A DNA stretch of 64,000 nt from the IMG/VR virus record IMGVR_UViG_3300046492_000163, positions 1 to 64,000 of that record. The stretch is one strand, 5' to 3'. A program made the translations under genes and the position numbers. The notes below the pieces were generated by a model, which searched no databases, was not told the DNA's origin, and worked only from the letters and a program-made list of their open reading frames with translations. How positions within the stretch are numbered: position 1 is the stretch's first letter; every line of letters begins with the position of its first letter. The DNA is from a virus (taxonomy: Duplodnaviria > Heunggongvirae > Uroviricota > Caudoviricetes). Below are positions 28,166 to 48,409 of this stretch, one piece after another.

Positions 28166-28654
28166 ATGGCACGCGACAAGAAAACGGTTAAAAATCGTAC
28201 AGAGACGATCATCACCGATCACAAGACTGGGGAGGTTTTGAGCCAAGAATCGACCGTCACTTACAAAGTCCCACAAGAGCCGGACTTCGTGAAGGTGTAC
28301 ATCGAGTCCTTCACGGACATGGGACTGAGGGATCACCATGTGACCCTACTCTTCCAACTCGTTCGCAAAATGAACTACGAGAACGTGATTGCTCTCACAC
28401 CGGGCGCTCGGGTCAGGATCGGGGAAAAGCTGAAGATCCAGCAACAAACCTTCCGCAATTACCTGGCTGTTCTACTGGAGGCAGATATATTCCGGCGAAT
28501 AGGTCACGGAGAGTTCATGGTGAACCCGACCTACATTGCGAAGGCGAGGTTTGAGGAAAACGTAGCTCGACAGAAGATTTATTACAAAATCAAGCAAGTA
28601 AAGACTAAGAAAGGCCGAACTCCGAAGCCCAAGGAAGTTGCTCCAGATACTTGA
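28166..28654 (+). CDS. winged-HTH DNA-binding protein (candidate plasmid-type Rep or regulator)
   Basis: 162 aa; QQTFRNYLAVLLEADIFRRIGHGEFMVNP looks like recognition helix + wing; preceded by 690-bp repeat-rich non-coding DNA; convergent with par operon. Confidence 0.5.
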   Translation: MARDKKTVKNRTETIITDHKTGEVLSQESTVTYKVPQEPDFVKVYIESFTDMGLRDHHVTLLFQLVRKMNYENVIALTPGARVRIGEKLKIQQQTFRNYLAVLLEADIFRRIGHGEFMVNPTYIAKARFEENVARQKIYYKIKQVKTKKGRTPKPKEVAPDT

Positions 28655-28701: not shown

Positions 28702-29238
28702 TTACTTGAGCTGCATCTTTCTCAATGTCTCAGCAGCCTTCTCGGGGGTGAGAAACCTATTGTGGGTCAACCACATGATCAACCCTTCCATTAGGATTGT
28801 CTGCCCAGTCAGGCCCCGAATTTCTTTCCGTGCTTCATCAACTACTTCGAACAGGTCGGGCGGAACTTGCACGCTCATTTGACTTGAGTTCTTTTTCTTC
28901 GTGCGATCATGTACAGGTGCGGCAAACATTACCGGCACCAGTTCTGGTTCAGGTTGAGCTGAAGTAACGAAAGTAATTGGTGGTTTCACGGGTTCTGGTT
29001 CTGGTTGACCTGGTTCTTCAGCAACTTTTGCTACAGGTGCGGCAGGCTGCGGTGCAACTTCCGGGGCATCCGCGATCTTGTGCAGCAATTGTTCAACCTC
29101 TTGCACTGGTGCGGGAGCTGGGGGCTCGACCGCTTCCGCTGGTGCCGCTGGCTGTAGTGGCACGGCTGTTGGATTGGGCGTTGCCTTCTCAGCCATTATC
29201 CCCGGTCTAAGGATGGATTCGCGTCGAGTGCGTGTCAT
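28702..29238 (-). CDS. ParG-like centromere-binding protein (RHH C-terminal domain, Pro/Ala-rich disordered N-terminus)
   Basis: C-terminus SVQVPPDLFEVVDEARKEI..GQTILMEGLIMWL fits a beta-strand-helix-helix (RHH) layout; downstream of parA; alternative start at 29196. Confidence 0.55.
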   Translation of the reverse strand: MTRTRRESILRPGIMAEKATPNPTAVPLQPAAPAEAVEPPAPAPVQEVEQLLHKIADAPEVAPQPAAPVAKVAEEPGQPEPEPVKPPITFVTSAQPEPELVPVMFAAPVHDRTKKKNSSQMSVQVPPDLFEVVDEARKEIRGLTGQTILMEGLIMWLTHNRFLTPEKAAETLRKMQLK

Positions 29239-29289: not shown

Positions 29290-29420
29290 CGGGTGGGTAC
29301 TCGGCTACCTACCAGAGTACCACACCGCCTACCTATTTGAATGGGTAACTGGGTAAGTACCCAACTGAGTAAATGGGTAGATACCCAGAGGTATATACAA
29401 GTGGGTAACTGGGTACTTAC
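29290..29420. repeat. centromere-like palindrome cluster (TGGGTA-NN-TACCCA units) downstream of parA
   Basis: TGGGTAAGTACCCA, TGGGTAGATACCCA, TGGGTACTTACCCA; the 31-bp block at 29370..29400 recurs at 31021..31051 with 1 mismatch. Confidence 0.5.
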
Positions 29421-29465
29421 CCACCTACCCACTCCAATACCCAAGCAGGGCAGTAAGGAATTAGG

Positions 29466-30224
29466 TCACTGGCTACTCACCAGCTTGAGTCCACGGGTGC
29501 CTTCTTTGACACCCAGCGACTTGCCTGCAACCTTCGGCCCGACCTTCGCCCGTTTCTTGACTTTTTCCTTGGGTTTCCGCAACTCAGCAGGTACTGGGTT
29601 CGGTTCTTTGATGCCAACTTCTTGCAGGATGAACTCAACCAGGTTGTCGATTTCCTCCACGCCTTGGTGGTTGGGATCGTATTCGTCCAAGGATTCGCCC
29701 CAGCCCATGCAAGTCTTAAAGGCAGTTGCTCGATGGACAATGCCCGCAACTTTCCCCACGCGGGAAAGCTCCATGACGGTTTCGGTTGTGATCCGTTCGC
29801 GTTTATCAACGATGTTCATCAGGAACACGGAGCGAGCGTGGTGTTCGGTCAGCGTGCCGAAGGTGTCGGCTGTACCTTCCAAATCCAATGGGCTTGGCTG
29901 GCACGGCACAACTACCAGATCGGCAATTTCATAAAGCTTGGACAGTTCTTCGTGCTTCCAGCCGGGGGTGTCGATCACGACACAATCCACGCCCAACTCC
30001 CGCAATTCATCGAGCCTTGGGCGAAGTTGTTCGAACGTAACTTTCAGCAGTTCGGGGAACTGAGATTCACGGCGTTCCCACCAGCGTTTGATGCCGCCTC
30101 GGTGGTGGTCAACGTCAATTAGAACGGTGTAGTAGCCACGGTTATCCAGGTTGACGCCAACCTGGGCGGTGATGGTGGACTTGCCTACACCCCCCTTTTC
30201 GTTGGCAACAGCGAAAATTTTCAT
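29466..30224 (-). CDS. parA: ParA/Soj-family partition ATPase (type Ib size)
   Basis: MKIFAVANEKGGVGKST deviant Walker A; GAGGAA RBS before ATG at 30224; ORF-track N-terminal extension to 30305 rejected. Confidence 0.9.
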   Translation of the reverse strand: MKIFAVANEKGGVGKSTITAQVGVNLDNRGYYTVLIDVDHHRGGIKRWWERRESQFPELLKVTFEQLRPRLDELRELGVDCVVIDTPGWKHEELSKLYEIADLVVVPCQPSPLDLEGTADTFGTLTEHHARSVFLMNIVDKRERITTETVMELSRVGKVAGIVHRATAFKTCMGWGESLDEYDPNHQGVEEIDNLVEFILQEVGIKEPNPVPAELRKPKEKVKKRAKVGPKVAGKSLGVKEGTRGLKLVSSQ

Positions 30225-30299
30225 TGGGTGTTCCTCTATATAGGTGCTCACCTGGGTGAGCGGTTCCTTGCTTAAGTGATTGCTTGCGCGAATCCCCGC

Positions 30300-31060
30300 A
30301 TCCATGCGTGATTGGGCGAACGCTTACCTGTGTAAACGAACGGGTATGTCCCTAAGTCCGCAGTTCCCTGAGTAACTGAGTAAAGACGGAAGCGTGCAAT
30401 TACGCATTCACTTACGTCCGCAACCGGGCGAGTAATGGCTCACGGGCGTGGTTCCCCACTTCTTCCCTTGGGCGTCCACCTGTGTGAGCACGCACTCGGT
30501 TGCTCAATTACCTAAGTCAGTAGCCAGTTCCCCACGTACCTCAATGAGGAAGTCACCACCTACCTAGGCAAACACCTGGGCAAGTACATACCTGCTTGGG
30601 TGTTTACTCAGACGCATGCGTCCTTACCTGGGGATTTAACTACTCGGGTGGGTAATTGTCAACTTACTCGCACAATTAATGTAATACGCGCCTACCCACG
30701 TACCCAACCAAGCGAGTCCCTAGGGAGGTAGGTAGGTGCATGGTTGGTTGAGTAGTTGAGTGTGGAGGTAGGTACTCAGACAACCACCTAGTTACCCAAA
30801 TAGGTAAGTGAATGGCTACTGGCGTACCTATGGAATTACCTGAATACGCAAGGGATTACGCACCCACACACGTACCCGGTTAGGTAAGCACACAAGTGAT
30901 TACGTGGTTCCTTGCGTGCTGGAGTATGCGGTGACGTACTGGTGTACTGGAGTACCCAAATGAGTAATTACCCAAGTGAGTAGCTGGGTAGGTGGGTAAG
31001 TACCCAAAAGGGTAGATGGGTAAATGGGTAGATACCCAGTGGTATATACAACCTGTTTGA
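30300..31060. repeat. repeat-rich non-coding region upstream of parA (degenerate GGTAAG/TACCCA and ATTAC motifs); candidate centromere
   Basis: no credible ORF; >8 ATTAC(C/G) copies and many GGTA/TACC half-palindromes; perfect TGGGTA-NN-TACCCA units at 31000..31040. Confidence 0.45.
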
Positions 31061-32349: not shown

Positions 32350-32733
32350 TTATGCAGCGGCAGACACTTGCTTCCAGCTCAGAACTTCGTCTTTGCCGTA
32401 CTTGCCGATCCACTCTTGAATCTTCTTCTTCAAGATGTTCGCCGCTCGCACGACTTCCCCAGTGTGTGGGTTTTTGTACTCAGTAAAGACTGTGTTCGGT
32501 CCTGCCTTCTTCGGCTTCTTCTCTTTGACCTCTACCACTGGCGGTACATAGTTCGGATCAAGGATCGTGTTCACATCTACCAAGGACATCCCGTATTTGG
32601 CTAGGAGTTCTCGCTGCTCAGCTTCGAAGGCCTGGAGCTTCTGTAGCTGGGGGTTATTCTCAAGCTCTTGAAGGCGGCGCTGTACGGCTTCGAACTCTGC
32701 TCTTGCTTCGTGTAGCTGCTTTACCAATGACAT
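32350..32733 (-). CDS. MvaT/MvaU-family H-NS-like nucleoid-associated protein (xenogeneic silencer homologue)
   Basis: 127 aa; MSL...coiled coil...ILDP...Lys-rich linker...EYKNPHTGEVV...LSW matches P. aeruginosa MvaT (LLDPDA, QYKNPHTGEVIETKGG...ESW), recalled from memory. Confidence 0.85.
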   Translation of the reverse strand: MSLVKQLHEARAEFEAVQRRLQELENNPQLQKLQAFEAEQRELLAKYGMSLVDVNTILDPNYVPPVVEVKEKKPKKAGPNTVFTEYKNPHTGEVVRAANILKKKIQEWIGKYGKDEVLSWKQVSAAA

Positions 32734-37422: not shown

Positions 37423-38064
37423 ATGGCACTAGTTACCCTTCCGTTTTCCGGCTTCTATCAGTCGCTGCATGATGGCGAGATAGACCGCGAAATTGCCTCG
37501 ATGTTCTCAGACCGGGATACCGGCTGTGATCGTAACCAAGGCTTAGAAAGTGCGCTTTTCGATAAGTGCGACTTTCGCCAAGTTCATCAGGCTTATACAC
37601 AAGCCTATGCGGAAAAGTTCGCACAAGAATTCAAAGTTAAAGGGCTCAAGTTTGAAAGTATGTCCAGCCCGAAAGAATATAACTTTGAAACAGACCGCGT
37701 ATTTGCACTAGTGTCTAAAAAGGAATTGACGCGCATTTATCGTAACTTAGATAAAAGCGTTTTTGCTGATGTCTTAAAAGACAAGTTCACAAGTTGCGAC
37801 GGTTTTAGTTCGTTCTACTCTAACGATGTGAAAGATTGGGGGCCAATCGCAAGTTGGGACCATAACCAATACGGCGCTATTCTGTTAGCGTTGGCTATTG
37901 AAGAAAGTACCAACGGCGAGTTTGACCAATGGGCGGAATATAACTTGTGCGAATCCTTTAGCGGTAACGGCGATTTAACCAGATGGATTGAAGCCGCTAC
38001 ACCTAACGTTGAACGCCTGTATAAAATTCACGACTACCTTGAAACACGTTCAGGGCGGGTTTAA
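37423..38064 (+). CDS. hypothetical protein
   Basis: 213 aa. Confidence 0.5.
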   Translation: MALVTLPFSGFYQSLHDGEIDREIASMFSDRDTGCDRNQGLESALFDKCDFRQVHQAYTQAYAEKFAQEFKVKGLKFESMSSPKEYNFETDRVFALVSKKELTRIYRNLDKSVFADVLKDKFTSCDGFSSFYSNDVKDWGPIASWDHNQYGAILLALAIEESTNGEFDQWAEYNLCESFSGNGDLTRWIEAATPNVERLYKIHDYLETRSGRV

Positions 38065-41965: not shown

Positions 41966-41994
41966 ACGCCGGGGCCAATGCCCCGGCTTTTTTA
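41966..41994 (+). terminator. intrinsic terminator
   Basis: GCCGGGGC-caat-GCCCCGGC + TTTTTT. Confidence 0.65.
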
Positions 41995-42148
41995 TGTCTG
42001 TTCCTGGGCTCGCCCTGGAGGAAGTCCCGAACACCCGAAGAAACACCCCCGCCAAGCCCCTGTGGATCGATTCCAGGAATTCCCCCGTCACCAGGTCATT
42101 ACCCCACCACTTTCTAGGCTCGCCCTGTGTAGGCCTCTATAGGAGCCC

Positions 42149-42740
42149 CTAGCAGCTAGGCCCCCAACTTAACTAATTACATATCTATTAATATGTGGCG
42201 TAGACGCCACGGGTAATTATCGCTAAGACGTACCGTCTTTCTTGTAATAGAGGGGGCAGGGGCCAGAAAGCCCCCTAATTAAAAAGCGTTCAATGCCGCG
42301 TAATACGCGGGGTGTAGCGTTATTCCGTGACGTGAACGTCACATATATACACCAGTCTATTGCGTAGCAATAAGTTAGTTACACTGCCCCATATACACTA
42401 CCCCATATAACTCCCTGCATAGTATAACTTCCGACTGTTAGTCGGGTATATGTCTCTATATATGTATTGAACTAACTTAGTTCAAATCCCCGTATTGCTT
42501 GCAATACAGTTAATTAACTATGACATATAGCCTATATCTTGGCGTAGCTAATCGGGACGATTGGGGTTAAGCCAAGCCTTTTTTCTATGGATTAAATTAT
42601 TTATATAGTTCCACGTGGAACAATTCGAACAGACACGCTAGTGTCAGAGTAAACCTAGACAGATAGCCCCGAGTCAGGGAGAATCTAGTGGAATCTGGCA
42701 CAGCCCAGGAATAGAGTCAGCTAATCGATCCTGGTGGATC
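42149..42740. repeat. AT-rich non-coding region densely packed with short perfect palindromes (>=12)
   Basis: GTGGCGTAGACGCCAC, AAGACGTACCGTCTT, CCGCGTAATACGCGG, GTGACGTGAACGTCAC, TATTGCGTAGCAATA, CCGACTGTTAGTCGG, TTGAACTAACTTAGTTCAA, GTATTGCTTGCAATAC, GTTAATTAAC, TTCCACGTGGAA, GACACGCTAGTGTC, GATCCTGGTGGATC. Confidence 0.5.
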
Positions 42741-42798: not shown

Positions 42799-42826
42799 TG
42801 TTCCCATATTAGGTATTATGTTAAAT
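42799..42826. other. dif-like 28-mer (candidate Xer recombination site)
   Basis: TGTTCCCATAT-TAGGTA-TTATGTTAAAT; right arm identical (11/11) to the XerD-binding arm of E. coli dif, ~21/28 overall to the Pseudomonas dif consensus (from memory). Confidence 0.45.
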
Positions 42827-43075
42827 CCCGGCCTAGTCGGCCCAGGTCAACTGACGAACGGTACTTGCGATATTTCTAGATTGTGCTAGCCAGGCCGGGG
42901 CCAGAAGCAAGAGCGGGTTTAACACCGAGCCACAGTTGGATGGATTCCAGGTATTACACCGAGCCACAGATTGTCGATATCTGGAAGTTACAAACTGTCC
43001 TGGTTAGTCCGTCCTGGTTGACCTGGCTGATAGTTGATATTCGCCCCAGTTGATATTCGGCAGGCGTAAGTAAGG

Positions 43076-43363
43076 GTGGTTTTAAAATTTGGAAAGTGGT
43101 ACACTTTTAAAATGGGAGACGTGCCCTCCAAAACAAAGTGGGAGTTTGCAATGGAAGCCAAGCTAGGCCGCAAGTACAGGATCGGTGGAGATGGTTGGTG
43201 GTACCTGGAACCAGGCGTACCCATCCTGGTGACGGATGAAATCCAGGTGAGTAGCCGCAATCCCACGGGCGTAGTTATAGAAGTGAAACGTGATGGTGAG
43301 TTACTGGGGCATAAGGCGATGCACCCCACCTTCTTCCAGCAAGACTTTGAGTTGATCGATTAA
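43076..43363 (+). CDS. hypothetical protein (start uncertain: GTG 43076, or ATG 43151 with GGGAG RBS)
   Basis: 95 aa. Confidence 0.4.
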   Translation: MVLKFGKWYTFKMGDVPSKTKWEFAMEAKLGRKYRIGGDGWWYLEPGVPILVTDEIQVSSRNPTGVVIEVKRDGELLGHKAMHPTFFQQDFELID

Positions 43364-43375
43364 GGATAGGCTGAG

Positions 43376-43933
43376 ATGTACAAGTTGACTGAAGACGACC
43401 TCCTAGAGTTTGCAAAGTGGTACTGGGAGAATAACGAAGTTCCCGAGGGCGTAGAACCCTTTGCGATTGGCGAAGATGGGGCCTACGTTCAGGAAGCCAC
43501 CCGTGATGCTCTGGTCCGCTGGGTGGACATGAAGTGTGCCGATGCTCTGATTGCATCTGGTATAACCCAAATAACTCGCTTCGGTGCTCCGCTGTACTGG
43601 ATCTTGGCTGAGGATGGTAGAACACCCAAGCAGACAAACAGTATCGCGCTGTGGGCTCAGTGCATGGGCAATGAAGCCATTAAGCGAGTTGCCTACGACA
43701 GTGACGACAACCTGGGTATCTCCGTCTCCACGGTGTTCTTGGGTATTGACCACGGCTACCACAGTAGCGAGCCAGTGCTGTTTGAGACGATGATTTTTGG
43801 TGGCAAGCACAACGAGTGGATGCAGCGTTACTGCACTTGGGAAGAGGCGGAACTAGGCCACCAAGAAGCCTGCGATCTGGCAGGAATCCAACGGAAGTTA
43901 TCAACCTGGATCGAGGGTCAACTAGATGCCTGA
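43376..43933 (+). CDS. hypothetical protein
   Basis: 185 aa. Confidence 0.5.
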   Translation: MYKLTEDDLLEFAKWYWENNEVPEGVEPFAIGEDGAYVQEATRDALVRWVDMKCADALIASGITQITRFGAPLYWILAEDGRTPKQTNSIALWAQCMGNEAIKRVAYDSDDNLGISVSTVFLGIDHGYHSSEPVLFETMIFGGKHNEWMQRYCTWEEAELGHQEACDLAGIQRKLSTWIEGQLDA

Positions 43934-44102
43934 ACTGACTGCCGAAGAGCACAAAGAGTTTGCAGAGTGGTTCAACAAGAATATCGAGATTCCCGATGAC
44001 GTGGAAGCCTTCGATGTTATGCCGGATGGCACATACGTTTGGCATGCCGCCCGTGACGGCCTGGTACGCTGGCTGGAAATGAGGCAGAGAGAGAACAACT
44101 AG
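43926..44102 (+). CDS. small ORF (58 aa)
   Basis: MPELTAEEHKEFAEWF...; coupled at both ends; N-terminus resembles start of gene 43376 (MYKLTEDDLLEFAKWY) suggesting a paralogue. Confidence 0.35.
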   Translation: MPELTAEEHKEFAEWFNKNIEIPDDVEAFDVMPDGTYVWHAARDGLVRWLEMRQRENN

Positions 44103-44486
44103 ATGACTACTCCAGTTGCAGTAAAGCGCTTTGTCATGTTGAACCCAGACGGGACTAACCGTGCAGGTAGTCTCATGAAGGCAGACGCTACAGTGGTGAT
44201 GACTCCGAGGGACGAACGGAATGCTATTGCACGCATCCTTGGCTGCAAGCAGGTCTATTGGTACGAGTTAAAGCTTCAGCAAGCGGATGGCGATTATCAC
44301 GCCAATGTCTACTTCGATCCAGACGCTGCTGAGAAGCGGTTGCCTATCAATGACCGCATAGACGTGATGATCCGTGACATGCACGATAAGAAACTAGCGC
44401 CCTACCCTGAGCTGCCAGTTTGCCTATATGGCCCTGTAGTCCTGGTCCCCGCTTCCGTTGGTGGTAATGGAGTTATGACCGCATGA
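44103..44486 (+). CDS. hypothetical protein
   Basis: 127 aa. Confidence 0.5.
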   Translation: MTTPVAVKRFVMLNPDGTNRAGSLMKADATVVMTPRDERNAIARILGCKQVYWYELKLQQADGDYHANVYFDPDAAEKRLPINDRIDVMIRDMHDKKLAPYPELPVCLYGPVVLVPASVGGNGVMTA

Positions 44487-44971
44487 GCAATGAAGTAGAC
44501 ATTATCACGAAGTTGATGCTGGCCCAAGTTAGCGCCTGCTCCTGTCAGACAAAGACTAGTGAAGCGGCCTGGCATGATACTTACTGCCTCTACCGCGTCC
44601 TAGATGAAGCTGTAGGAACGATCACCAGGCAGCATGTAGAGCAAGAAACCCTTCAGGCAGCCTATGAGTCGATGCGTGATCGCAAGAATTCGATTGTGCA
44701 TCTGCAACAGCAACTGTCTGCTGCTGCGGCAGAGATAGCCGAGCTGAAAGTTGACAAGGCTCGGCTAGACTTCTGGCAGGCCACCCCTGCCTATGTTGGT
44801 GGCTTTGCTCCCGGTAAGCGTCAGGTCTGGTCCTTCTTCGTTCCACCAGAGAGGGTCCGCAGTGGAGTAGGCAAAGTCTGCTACGGCGATACACTACGCG
44901 AAGCAATGGATCAGCTCCAGGTTATGCACGCGGATTTGACCAAGGGTTCTGACACAACTAAGCGGCACTGA
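44483..44971 (+). CDS. hypothetical protein
   Basis: 162 aa. Confidence 0.5.
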   Translation: MSNEVDIITKLMLAQVSACSCQTKTSEAAWHDTYCLYRVLDEAVGTITRQHVEQETLQAAYESMRDRKNSIVHLQQQLSAAAAEIAELKVDKARLDFWQATPAYVGGFAPGKRQVWSFFVPPERVRSGVGKVCYGDTLREAMDQLQVMHADLTKGSDTTKRH

Positions 44972-44979
44972 GGGCGAAC

Positions 44980-45177
44980 ATGGACAGTGAGAAGAAGATT
45001 CACGAGAAGTATTACCGCTTTGCCGTAGCTGAGTTACCCCGTGTTAAACAGGCTCTAGAAGCCCTCCAGCCCACTGGGGTTGATTGGTTGGACTCACTGT
45101 TCAGGATGCATATCAAGGACACGATACAGGGCTTTGAGGACACTATCGAAGAGTTTGAAAACAGGCCCAAACACTGA
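44980..45177 (+). CDS. hypothetical small protein
   Basis: 65 aa. Confidence 0.4.
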   Translation: MDSEKKIHEKYYRFAVAELPRVKQALEALQPTGVDWLDSLFRMHIKDTIQGFEDTIEEFENRPKH

Positions 45178-45264
45178 TAATAAAAGTTTGAAAAGTCGTA
45201 CACTAAGCTTGCTCCCCTGCTATACTGAAAGTACGTCGAAGGACTTACTAGTGGGAGCAAGTAC

Positions 45265-46200
45265 ATGATCGATTTTCAGGCTGGTGTAGATTCTTTCTGC
45301 GAATACCTGCGACTTGAACGTCAAGCGTCTGTTCACACTATCCAAGCCCGTCGTCGTGACCTGGCTAAAGTGATTGCCTACTGCAAGGCCTGCCATATCC
45401 CTGACTGGTCCTCCTTTGAGGCTGCGAACATGCGGGGCTTGGTCGCAAAGATGAACGAGAATGGTCAAGAGGCAAACAGCGTCAAGCGTCTGATGTCTTC
45501 CGTCCGTAGATTGTTCCGCCACCTCAAGTTGCAGAACGTGATCGCTGATGGTCATAACCCGCTTCATAAAGTGGACACACCAAAGGGTCACAAACGGCTT
45601 CCTCGGCACCTGCTCTCCTATGAGTCTGGCGACATGCTCGATGCTGAAGTGGAAGACACTTTCATTGCCCGTCGTGACCATGCCATTGTTGAACTTTTCT
45701 ACTCTTCTGGCCTTCGCCTCACTGAACTAGTGAACCTCGACATGGAGCACGTAGACTTCAACGACAAGTTGGTAACGGTAGTTGGCAAGGGCAATAAGAC
45801 CCGGATCGTTCCAGTGGGTCGCAAGGCTCTGGAGTCGCTTCAGGAATGGTTCAAGCACCGCGACCTGGTGGAAGCAAAGGGCAAGGCGATCTTCATCAGC
45901 CAGCAGGGCCAACGCCTCACCGGGCGGGCTGTCCGCATGCGGGTAGAAGCCATGGGCAAGAGCAAGCTGGGCCGTCACCTGTACCCGCACATGCTCCGTC
46001 ATTCCTTTGCCACAGATATGTTGTCTTCGTGCCACGACTTGCGTGTTGTACAGGAGCTGCTCGGTCACGCAGACATCAAGACCACGCAGATTTACACGCA
46101 CTTGGATTACGGCCATCTTGCAGGGGTGTACAACAATGCTCACCCACGGGCTAAACGCATTACAACTGATTCCGATATTGGAAAGAGCCATGAACTATAA
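45265..46200 (+). CDS. XerC/XerD-like tyrosine recombinase
   Basis: 311 aa; C-terminus HMLRHSFATDMLSSCHDLRVVQELLGHADIKTTQIYTHLDYGHLAGVYNNAHPRAKR near-identical in pattern to XerC; GGGAG RBS. Confidence 0.85.
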   Translation: MIDFQAGVDSFCEYLRLERQASVHTIQARRRDLAKVIAYCKACHIPDWSSFEAANMRGLVAKMNENGQEANSVKRLMSSVRRLFRHLKLQNVIADGHNPLHKVDTPKGHKRLPRHLLSYESGDMLDAEVEDTFIARRDHAIVELFYSSGLRLTELVNLDMEHVDFNDKLVTVVGKGNKTRIVPVGRKALESLQEWFKHRDLVEAKGKAIFISQQGQRLTGRAVRMRVEAMGKSKLGRHLYPHMLRHSFATDMLSSCHDLRVVQELLGHADIKTTQIYTHLDYGHLAGVYNNAHPRAKRITTDSDIGKSHEL

Positions 46201-47698: not shown

Positions 47699-48409
47699 TT
47701 AACTATTTGAAGTAGACTCTTTAACCTTGGCCCGGTAGCCCCGTTCTGTCCAGTGCTTGTTCCCGGCCAGTATGTCTTCGATGATTGCCTTCTTGGAGTT
47801 TGCTGGAACTGTCTCACCCCGGATGTTCACGAACGTAGGCGGATCCAGCAGTCGCCCATCTGCTGAGATGTCGAAGCCCAAGAACTCAAAGAATTCTTTC
47901 TCTGTACCAGGTAACTTGGCGGCACCTGCGTTCTTCATCGCCTCGATGCTCGTTCCGCCGTGGCTGATGATGTACACGGTCCCCTTTGGAGCCTCAGTAG
48001 ATCGGTCCCGGCGTGGTGTCTTCTTGCCCTTGTGCAGGCCTTCCTGTGTCGTCTGGAGAACCAGTAGGCCCAGCTCGTACACCAGCGACTTGTAGTCCCT
48101 CGGGAAGGCCCTCATGACCTCGGCAAAGGTGAAGTCTTCAGCGATCTGGTGCAGGCGGGAGTTGCGTTGCTCTTCGTCCTGCTTCGCCTTCTTCAGTTCG
48201 TCTGTGAGCCTGAAGATTGCCTCTGTATCGCCTTGGCCTGCGGCCTCATGAATGCGGCGAGTGAGGTCCGCTGCCCTAGCATCGTTTCGATTCTGGAATA
48301 ACCGATCGATCACGGCGTTCGCACTGCTGCGGGATACTGGGTTCAGGTCCGCGTCTTGGGTTGCCCCCTTGTACACCATCTCATAATCGATTAGCGCTTC
48401 ACTATTCAT
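47699..48409 (-). CDS. hypothetical protein
   Basis: 236 aa. Confidence 0.5.
   Translation of the reverse strand: MNSEALIDYEMVYKGATQDADLNPVSRSSANAVIDRLFQNRNDARAADLTRRIHEAAGQGDTEAIFRLTDELKKAKQDEEQRNSRLHQIAEDFTFAEVMRAFPRDYKSLVYELGLLVLQTTQEGLHKGKKTPRRDRSTEAPKGTVYIISHGGTSIEAMKNAGAAKLPGTEKEFFEFLGFDISADGRLLDPPTFVNIRGETVPANSKKAIIEDILAGNKHWTERGYRAKVKESTSNS

Follow-up and report, generated by a model that had tools for sequence, protein, structure and literature searches.

Plasmids and non-tailed integrating phages are known to carry Xer recombination sites, and literature searches brought up none reported for tailed phages. The question raised by the locus described here is what such a site would do in the tailed phage of IMG/VR record IMGVR_UViG_3300046492_000163, of which positions 1 to 64,000 were analyzed (this stretch of 64,000 nucleotides is referred to as the window), and which recombinases would act on it. 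An original prediction, made from the letters of the sequence alone, had drawn attention to a 28-bp sequence resembling the chromosomal site dif, located some 2.4 kb upstream of a complete XerC-like recombinase gene, and had offered two readings, namely the resolution of plasmid dimers by an element-encoded Xer paralogue or Xer-mediated integration of the phage at the dif site of its host. The answer that we favor, as probable though not secure, is that the site would resolve multimers of a circular, low-copy, plasmid-like prophage belonging to a siphovirus-type phage of about 107 kb, whose host is probably Pseudomonas.

The dif-like site and its conservation among related phages

Alignment of the 28-mer to a host-type dif, as proposed in advance, shows that 21 of its 28 positions are identical to the dif site of P. 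aeruginosa PAO1, GATTCGCATAATGTATATTATGTTAAAT (PMC2731167). The agreement is unevenly distributed, with 11 of 11 positions identical in the XerD arm, 7 of 11 in the XerC arm and 3 of 6 in the spacer, which confirms the perfect XerD arm and degenerate XerC arm noted at the outset; the right arm is in fact identical to the XerD arm of both E. coli dif and P. aeruginosa dif. On both strands of the window the 28-mer is the highest-scoring dif match, the runners-up reaching 19 and 18. Among 300 dinucleotide shuffles a score of 21 was never attained (the maximum of 20 was reached in 10 shuffles), and the binomial expectation for chance sites with the score of the 28-mer is approximately 0.005 per window. 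Furthermore, the 28-mer occurs only once in the window even when three mismatches are allowed, as does its XerD arm at up to one mismatch, and the window contains no second dif-like site, no symmetric XerC-type site and no other palindrome of the XerC arm. The site lies within a stretch of about 930 bp without plausible genes, delimited by a strong terminator (41968-41997) on one side and by the next gene on the other. Taken by its sequence, the 28-mer is most likely an Xer recombination site of the dif/cer/psi class.

A further candidate on the minus strand (37928-37955, GATTCGCACAA-GTTATA-TTCCGCCCATT), which matches dif at 19 of 28 positions and has a near-perfect XerC arm of host type (10 of 11 positions identical to PAO1 dif), was judged to be a chance match and rejected, as it lies inside an open reading frame (ORF), has no XerD arm and falls within the distribution of the shuffled sequences.

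Searches with the phage xerC gene and with a neighboring gene for a 235-residue protein (47699-48409) identified eight related phage contigs from independent metagenomes, six of which are 100-107 kb in length. All eight relatives have the gene-free region, of about 1 kb, in common with the window, and in each of them a dif-like site of 28 bp occupies the corresponding position within it (Table 1). In all nine phages the XerD arm begins with ten invariant bases, TTATGTTAAA, while the surrounding alignment of 340 bp averages 53% column identity. The spacer, in comparison, occurs in seven variants among the nine phages, none of which is the TGTATA of proteobacterial dif, and the XerC arm varies at most positions, although the 11-6-11 layout is retained throughout (9/9). 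The rules described for Xer sites comprise two 11-bp arms around a center of 6-8 bp, a better conserved XerD arm and a spacer that is not conserved (PMC11724359), and the layout, the conservation of the XerD arm and the free spacer seen here all agree with them. By the same kind of rule, the inner 5 bp of the arms should be the most conserved and mutually palindromic (CATAA / TTATG); in the XerC arm these bases read CATAA in L108 and L111 and CATAT in the window, L081, L082 and L114, and the remaining phages have TGTAA, TAGAA or AAGAA.

Table 1. Arms and spacer of the dif-like site in the window and in eight related phage contigs.
Phage	XerC arm	Spacer	XerD arm	Own xerC
Window	TGTTCCCATAT	TAGGTA	TTATGTTAAAT	yes
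L081	CCTTCCCATAT	TGGGGA	TTATGTTAAAT	yes
L082	CCTTCCCATAT	TAGGTA	TTATGTTAAAG	yes
L114	GTGGCGCATAT	CGGGTA	TTATGTTAAAT	yes
L110	ACTACGAAGAA	TAGACA	TTATGTTAAAT	yes
L107	ATTACGTAGAA	CGGGTA	TTATGTTAAAG	none within 10 kb
L108	ACTACGCATAA	CGTTCA	TTATGTTAAAT	none within 10 kb
L109	ATTGCGTGTAA	TGGTCA	TTATGTTAAAC	none within 10 kb
L111	GCTACGCATAA	TAGTCA	TTATGTTAAAT	none within 10 kb

Comparison of the region with the INPHARED phages and the PLSDB plasmids, by megablast and by sensitive blastn, gave no match, and scans of IMG/VR with the recombinase, the 235-residue neighbor, a pattern for the 28-mer and a motif from the conserved hairpins returned generic integrases or nothing. Pseudomonas phage Lana, which provides the best match to the tail-tip protein of the window, was considered as a relative and rejected, since only the tail module and MazG are in common and both a recombinase and a dif-like site are missing from Lana. 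Distant homologues of the 235-residue protein (43-48% identity) are encoded by P. luteola (contig L112; GCA_044903105.1, JBJDQB010000048.1) and by the 904-kb megaplasmid of Pseudomonas sp. Leaf58 (NZ_CP032678.1), in unrelated gene contexts that contain no dif-like site.

The phage recombinase and the divergence of the left arm

The gene downstream of the site encodes a tyrosine recombinase with Phage_integrase and SAM_1 domains (Pfam), in which the catalytic residues R151, K175/K178, H242, R245, H268 and Y277 (R-K-H-R-H-Y) are all retained. As predicted, the protein is XerC-like rather than lambda-Int-like: it scores 311.2 bits against the NCBIfam XerC model (TIGR02224; below the equivalog cutoff of 335.15) versus 254 bits against XerD, it keeps the C-terminal sequence THLDxxxLxxVYxxAHPRAKR that is common to Pseudomonas and Salmonella XerC and absent from XerD, and it has no N-terminal arm-binding domain of the lambda-Int type. 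Its identity to chromosomal Pseudomonas XerC is put at 53-56% overall, and its identity to the Salmonella proteins is 42% for XerC and 37% for XerD. The nearest solved structure is that of E. coli XerD (1a0p). For all five phage copies of the gene the XerC model outscores the XerD model, and two of the orthologues exceed the XerC cutoff (L110, 340.8 bits; L082, 339.7 bits), with L114 (324.3 bits) and L081 (308.4 bits) remaining below it.

The phage copies differ considerably in their distance from the bacterial enzyme. Identity to a set of Pseudomonas XerC proteins is 62-67% for L110, 58-64% for L082 and 58-62% for L114, compared with 52-54% for L081 (55% to L114) and 49-54% for the window (56% to L114). 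When 5.8 billion proteins were searched, the top three matches to the recombinase of the window were the protein itself and two phage orthologues (83% and 64% identity), and nearly all of the remaining listed matches that carry a source name were chromosomal Pseudomonas XerC proteins at 50-55% identity. The ratio of non-synonymous to synonymous substitution rates (dN/dS) among the phage orthologues is 0.15-0.30, reflecting purifying selection. No second tyrosine recombinase gene is found in the window. Judged on these sequence comparisons, the gene is a captured, diverging xerC paralogue amid phage genes, and neither a lambda-type integrase nor a host housekeeping gene.

Where present (five of the nine phages), xerC always belongs to the rightward operon that comes first past the site. 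L110 and L114 have it as the leading gene, at a distance of about 370-390 bp, an arrangement typical of the linkage between recombinases and their sites, and in the window it begins 2,438 bases past the site, in accordance with the predicted 2.4 kb, with five ORFs in between. In L107, L108, L109 and L111 no recombinase gene is found within 10 kb of the site. Because these four relatives keep the site without such a gene nearby, the site appears to be first of all one for the host XerCD recombinase; host XerCD probably served the ancestral site, and xerC would be a later addition in part of the group.

Also relevant to the role of the phage protein is the sequence of the left arm. The form TTCCCATAT, which retains neither the CG that is constant in the other arms nor the AA at the end, is confined to the three phages with a window-type XerC, and the genes between site and xerC differ among those three. 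At arm position 11, adjacent to the presumed position of XerC cleavage, a T is present in four of the five phages with xerC and in none of the four without it. This distribution suggests that the left arm may be bound by phage XerC and the right arm by host XerD. A more far-reaching proposal, to which we attach somewhat less than even weight, is that phage XerC and host XerD would form a mixed recombinase, the XerC half-site having diverged together with its enzyme (TTCCCATAT in place of TTCGCATAA), and that dimer resolution would as a result be orthogonal to that of the host. If so, host XerC would no longer serve the site and there would be no recombination with chromosomal dif, the reaction could escape the control that the host exerts through FtsK or accessory proteins, and the phage would provide a natural case of a mobile element that captures and re-targets one half of a two-recombinase machine.

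Proposed multimer resolution and competing explanations

The source contig is that of a siphovirus-type phage of about 107 kb. A tail module on the plus strand comprises genes for the tape measure protein, minor tail proteins, a tail-tip protein of 2,428 residues and tail fibers, and a nucleotide-metabolism module on the minus strand includes ribonucleotide reductase, thymidylate synthase, MazG, phosphoesterases and an exonuclease; genes for the head and for packaging fall outside the 64-kb window. Between the two modules is a set of genes of plasmid type (Table 2). The ParA-family protein has ParA_partition as its top NCBIfam family (115 bits, under the cutoff of 180), and four other contigs, of which three measure 101-108 kb, encode orthologues of it (67-76% identity). 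The GGGTA/TACCC repeats that accompany parA are present in 29 copies between 29 and 32 kb, compared with about 2 per kb elsewhere, and are also enriched around parA in the relative L117. Together with the RepL-family protein encoded next to them, ParA and the phased repeats correspond to the combination of partition and replication functions by which phage-plasmids are recognized. An ORF of 177 residues downstream of parA (28702-29238) matches no family and could encode a centromere-binding partner. The module also contains a gene for a nucleoid silencer of the MvaT/MvaU family, likewise present in L117; MvaT/MvaU is a Pseudomonas-type protein, and its occurrence on a phage is reminiscent of the H-NS-like 'stealth' proteins that plasmids encode, an example being Pmr of pCAR1. 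This gene, the XerC relatives, the top matches of the tail-tip protein, which are Pseudomonas phages, and the homologues of the 235-residue protein on Pseudomonas megaplasmids all point to Pseudomonas as the host.

In the proposed mechanism, homologous recombination between sister copies of the circular prophage would generate dimers, and recombination between the two directly repeated sites of a dimer would restore monomers, which would then be partitioned by the ParA system. Host XerD would act on the invariant right arm TTATGTTAAAT; phage XerC would act on the left arm TTCCCATAT, drifted from the host XerC consensus, in the phage of the window and its two close relatives, while in relatives without xerC the left arm would be taken by host XerC. 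The sequences themselves show the site and its conservation, the character of the recombinase and the genes of plasmid type; that the prophage lives as a plasmid, that phage XerC pairs with host XerD and in which direction the reaction runs is what we infer from them. The suggestion that plasmid dimers are resolved is thus supported by the module of ParA, repeats, RepL and MvaT/MvaU, by the presence of the site in nine phages and by a free spacer that never equals that of host-type dif. The accompanying idea that the resolver is an element-encoded Xer paralogue holds in part only: dimer resolution is kept as the reading, and the site is independent of the phage recombinase, as the four relatives without xerC within 10 kb illustrate. 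Similarly, the pattern of arms, which had been likened both to elements exploiting host XerCD and to plasmid sites, agrees with the latter, in which a degenerate XerC arm is normal and not in itself a mark of exploitation.

Integration at the host dif would instead make the 28-mer an attP used in the manner of CTXphi, VGJphi and TLCphi, with the phage's own XerC helping. A dif-like site with a perfect XerD arm fits such a role, and an XerC paralogue could favor an XerC-first exchange; Xer-exploiting elements do carry sites of this kind (PMC12715192). Nevertheless, we regard integration as unlikely. The spacers vary among close relatives and have no consistent homology to TGTATA at either end, with the first two bases agreeing in 2/9 and the last two in 4/9 (the host's own dif may differ), and while a free spacer would be expected of a site that needs to match only its own copy, a site that pairs with host dif could not vary so. 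Phage genes flank the site on both sides in all nine contigs. A scan for hybrid sites (TTCCCATAT-N6-TTATGTTAAA), restricted to one genome per species and to the window-type arm, gave 6 matches in 185,579 species-representative genomes and 13 in JGI metagenomes, without similarity to the window; these are unrelated, mostly AT-rich sequences found at about the chance rate, and dif-flanked prophage copies, which the original prediction had proposed to look for, were not found in these scans. Outside the phages, the phage XerC has its nearest homologues in ordinary chromosomal XerC proteins with at most 55% identity, and a prophage copy therefore appears to be absent from sequenced genomes; moreover, the ParA partition module argues for an episome. 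CTXphi, VGJphi, TLCphi and the dif-type double jelly-roll phages resemble the present group in having a phage-borne dif-like site for host Xer proteins. Those elements are, however, non-tailed, lack a recombinase (PMC12715192), are found integrated at dif and have a spacer constrained on one side by the host dif, none of which is seen in the nine contigs or in the scans described above. In terms of the definition of integrative mobile elements exploiting Xer (IMEX), which have no recombinase of their own and a spacer homologous to dif, the phage of the window encodes an XerC homologue and has the spacer TAGGTA rather than TGTATA, with the proviso that the dif of its host may differ. The module for partition and replication, the phage genes flanking the site, the free spacer and the failure of the scans to reveal a hybrid or prophage copy are together the grounds for preferring multimer resolution to integration.

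It is also conceivable that site and gene are unlinked, with host XerCD alone acting on the 28-mer and phage XerC working elsewhere, as an integrase at another site or on host dif, where it would disturb or appropriate the resolution of chromosome dimers. The four relatives that hold the site without a nearby recombinase gene would be explained in this way, as would the distance and the intervening ORFs in the window, but the invariable placement of xerC in the first rightward operon, adjoining the site in L110 and L114, and the co-occurrence of the TTCCCATAT arm with window-type XerC despite differing genes between them make this improbable, and neither an alternative target (another dif-like site or XerC-arm palindrome in the window) nor the arm-binding domain of a lambda-type integrase is seen. 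Quite remote, in our estimate, is a function confined to the infection cycle, in which the site would circularize injected, terminally redundant DNA or process replication intermediates, as Cre-lox can do for P1. The lytic-style replication and nucleotide-metabolism module accords with such a function, which requires, however, that the site lie inside the terminal redundancy, and which leaves ParA, the repeats and the MvaT module unexplained. In P1, one site serves both infection-cycle and plasmid-maintenance roles, and this function would be compatible with multimer resolution rather than exclusive of it. Very little credence, finally, is given to the 28-mer as a conserved regulatory element that resembles dif by chance. 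It does lie in a densely conserved non-coding region that contains other conserved palindromes and promoter-like blocks, but against this stand the low chance expectation given above, the coincidence of the conserved part with exactly the XerD arm, the retention of the 11-6-11 layout while the spacer varies, and the presence of xerC downstream in five of the nine phages.

Several observations weigh against multimer resolution by a phage-assisted Xer system. Apart from its plasmid-type module, the genome looks like that of a large phage of lytic style, and neither a ParB nor a repressor is recognized in the window, which represents 64 of the approximately 107 kb of the contig. No member of the group is found in INPHARED or PLSDB and none is cultured, and gene content alone speaks for the extrachromosomal state. 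The absence of xerC from four relatives refers to the 10 kb around the site. The link between possession of xerC and divergence of the arm is weak, amounting to approximately one evolutionary event, and the arms of L107 and L109 are degenerate without xerC. On the XerC side of the site, 180 bp are poorly conserved except for two palindromes, and neither FtsK control nor accessory-sequence control is therefore evident; no accessory-sequence signature (an ArgR, ArcA, PepA region) is recognized at the site, and FtsK-orienting polar sequences (KOPS, GGGNAGGG) do not converge on it, with one forward versus seven reverse motifs on the left side. The maximum of cumulative G-C at about 47 kb is uninformative in this respect, because it coincides with a switch in gene orientation.

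Among characterized systems, the closest in layout are ColE1 cer, pSC101 psi and the site of R27 (PMC11724359), plasmid sites served by host XerCD, which also combine a degenerate XerC arm with a free spacer and whose role, multimer resolution of a circular replicon, the phage site would share; the XerD arm of R27 is identical to TTATGTTAAAT. The likeness is greatest to the Xer class of large plasmids, with a replicon of about 100 kb, a 28-bp site and no recognizable accessory sequence. Here, however, it is a tailed phage that constitutes the replicon, an additional xerC is encoded by five of the nine phages, and neither an ArgR/ArcA/PepA region nor KOPS polarity is recognized. With P1 Cre/loxP (PMC2409434), the group would share a plasmid prophage with a partition system, a tyrosine recombinase of its own and one short monomerizing site. 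Cre, in contrast, needs no partner on its symmetric 34-bp site and is no orthologue of Xer, and the 28-mer has no sequence relationship to loxP; the host-type XerD arm and the presence of only an XerC homologue imply a mixed phage-host recombinase instead. A recombinase gene linked to a dif-like site is also a feature of XerS/difSL and XerH/difH, but these systems are chromosomal and use a single recombinase for both arms, whereas the arms differ here, the right one being a canonical XerD arm.

Plasmid prophages commonly carry Xer-related recombinases presumed to function in dimer resolution (PMC8026635), and the general idea is thus already in the literature. The targets of those recombinases are mostly unidentified and the proteins are distant Xer relatives, while in the present group two orthologues exceed the NCBIfam XerC cutoff and a cognate site can be identified. 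What is new is that a canonical Xer site can be identified throughout a group of tailed phages, that it occurs both where the phage has an xerC and where none is found nearby and, as far as the sequences indicate, that a true xerC has been captured, with no xerD in the window and with a changed half-site. If multimer resolution is correct, this group of uncultured tailed phages of Pseudomonas of about 100 kb behaves as plasmids that rely on their host's machinery for chromosome dimer resolution. The group would also offer a graded natural series for the evolution of XerC half-site specificity and of the XerC-XerD partnership, extending from phages without xerC and with a near-canonical arm, through those with an XerC of 64-67% identity to that of the host, to those with an XerC of 49-56% identity and a re-written arm. 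In addition, TTATGTTAAA within a conserved intergenic region could provide a simple sequence marker for such phage-plasmids in metagenomes.

Putative control elements and neighboring features

The features of the window that bear on the site, the recombinase and the plasmid-type module are collected in Table 2.

Table 2. Positions of the candidate Xer site, the recombinase gene, the plasmid-type module and the associated candidate control elements in the window.
Feature	Position	Strand	Description
RepL-family replication protein gene	28166-28654	+	PF05732, 43.8 bits vs cutoff 20.3, nearly full profile
GGGTA/TACCC repeat arrays	29294-29440 and 30340-31041		8-bp phase, both sides of parA; candidate centromere or iterons
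ParA-family partition ATPase gene	29466-30305	-	Pfam MipZ, CbiA, ParA; PHROG 164 ParA-like partition protein
MvaT/MvaU-family nucleoid silencer gene	32350-32733	-	Pseudomonas-type H-NS analogue; Pfam MvaT_DBD; NCBIfam silencer_MvaTU 75.6 vs cutoff 75
Hairpin array	42190-42620		at least 7 short hairpins, 200-600 bp from site; e.g. GTGGCGTAGACGCCAC, CCGCGTAATACGCGG, GTGACGTGAACGTCAC, TATTGCGTAGCAATA
Palindromes	42608-42660	+	GTTCCACGTGGAAC and GACAC..CTAGTGTC; about 180 bp from site on XerC-arm side; kept in most of the nine phages
Candidate Xer site, 28 bp	42799-42826	+	XerC-type arm 42799-42809; spacer 42810-42815; XerD arm 42816-42826 (sequences in Table 1)
Two conserved blocks	42864-42934	+	CTTGCGATATTTCTAGATTGTGCTAG and AGAGCGGGTTTAACACCGAGCCACA; 40-110 bp downstream of site; second copy of AGAGCGGGTTTAACACCGAGCCACA from about 42950
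xerC leader	45208-45261	+	extended -10-like TGCTATACT at 45218-45226; inverted repeat CTTGCTCCC (45208-45216) with GGGAGCAAG (45253-45261)
xerC-derived tyrosine recombinase gene	45265-46200	+	311 residues; PF00589, PF02899

The two blocks that follow the site, which include a direct repeat, are kept in all nine phages and probably serve to control the rightward operon in which xerC lies, and the palindromes on the opposite side are possible binding sites for accessory proteins or regulators. Further from the site, the hairpin array is likewise kept in 9/9 phages, with 59 predicted pairs, 15 of which show compensatory changes. No Rfam family was matched anywhere in the window; the array could represent either a structured RNA or an origin based on single-strand DNA or on RNA.

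Immediately upstream of xerC, the inverted repeat of the leader would pair over the GGGAG ribosome-binding site, and the leader is kept upstream of xerC in L081 and L082; its conservation suggests that translation of the recombinase may be tightly limited. A common motif is found at 43083-43103 (AAAATTTGGAAAGTGGTACAC), ahead of the gene that comes first past the intergenic region, and at 45182-45202 (AAAGTTTGAAAAGTCGTACAC), ahead of xerC; the former copy is kept in L081, and the motif may act as a promoter or operator specific to the phage. Between the site and xerC, the ORFs 43376-43933 and 43926-44102 contain similar 5' segments (43386-43461 and 43936-44011; 76 nucleotides, 74% identical), and the resemblance of their N-termini, LTEDDLLEFAKWYWENNEVPEGVEPF and LTAEEHKEFAEWFNKNIEIPDDVEAF, indicates that the two ORFs are paralogous.

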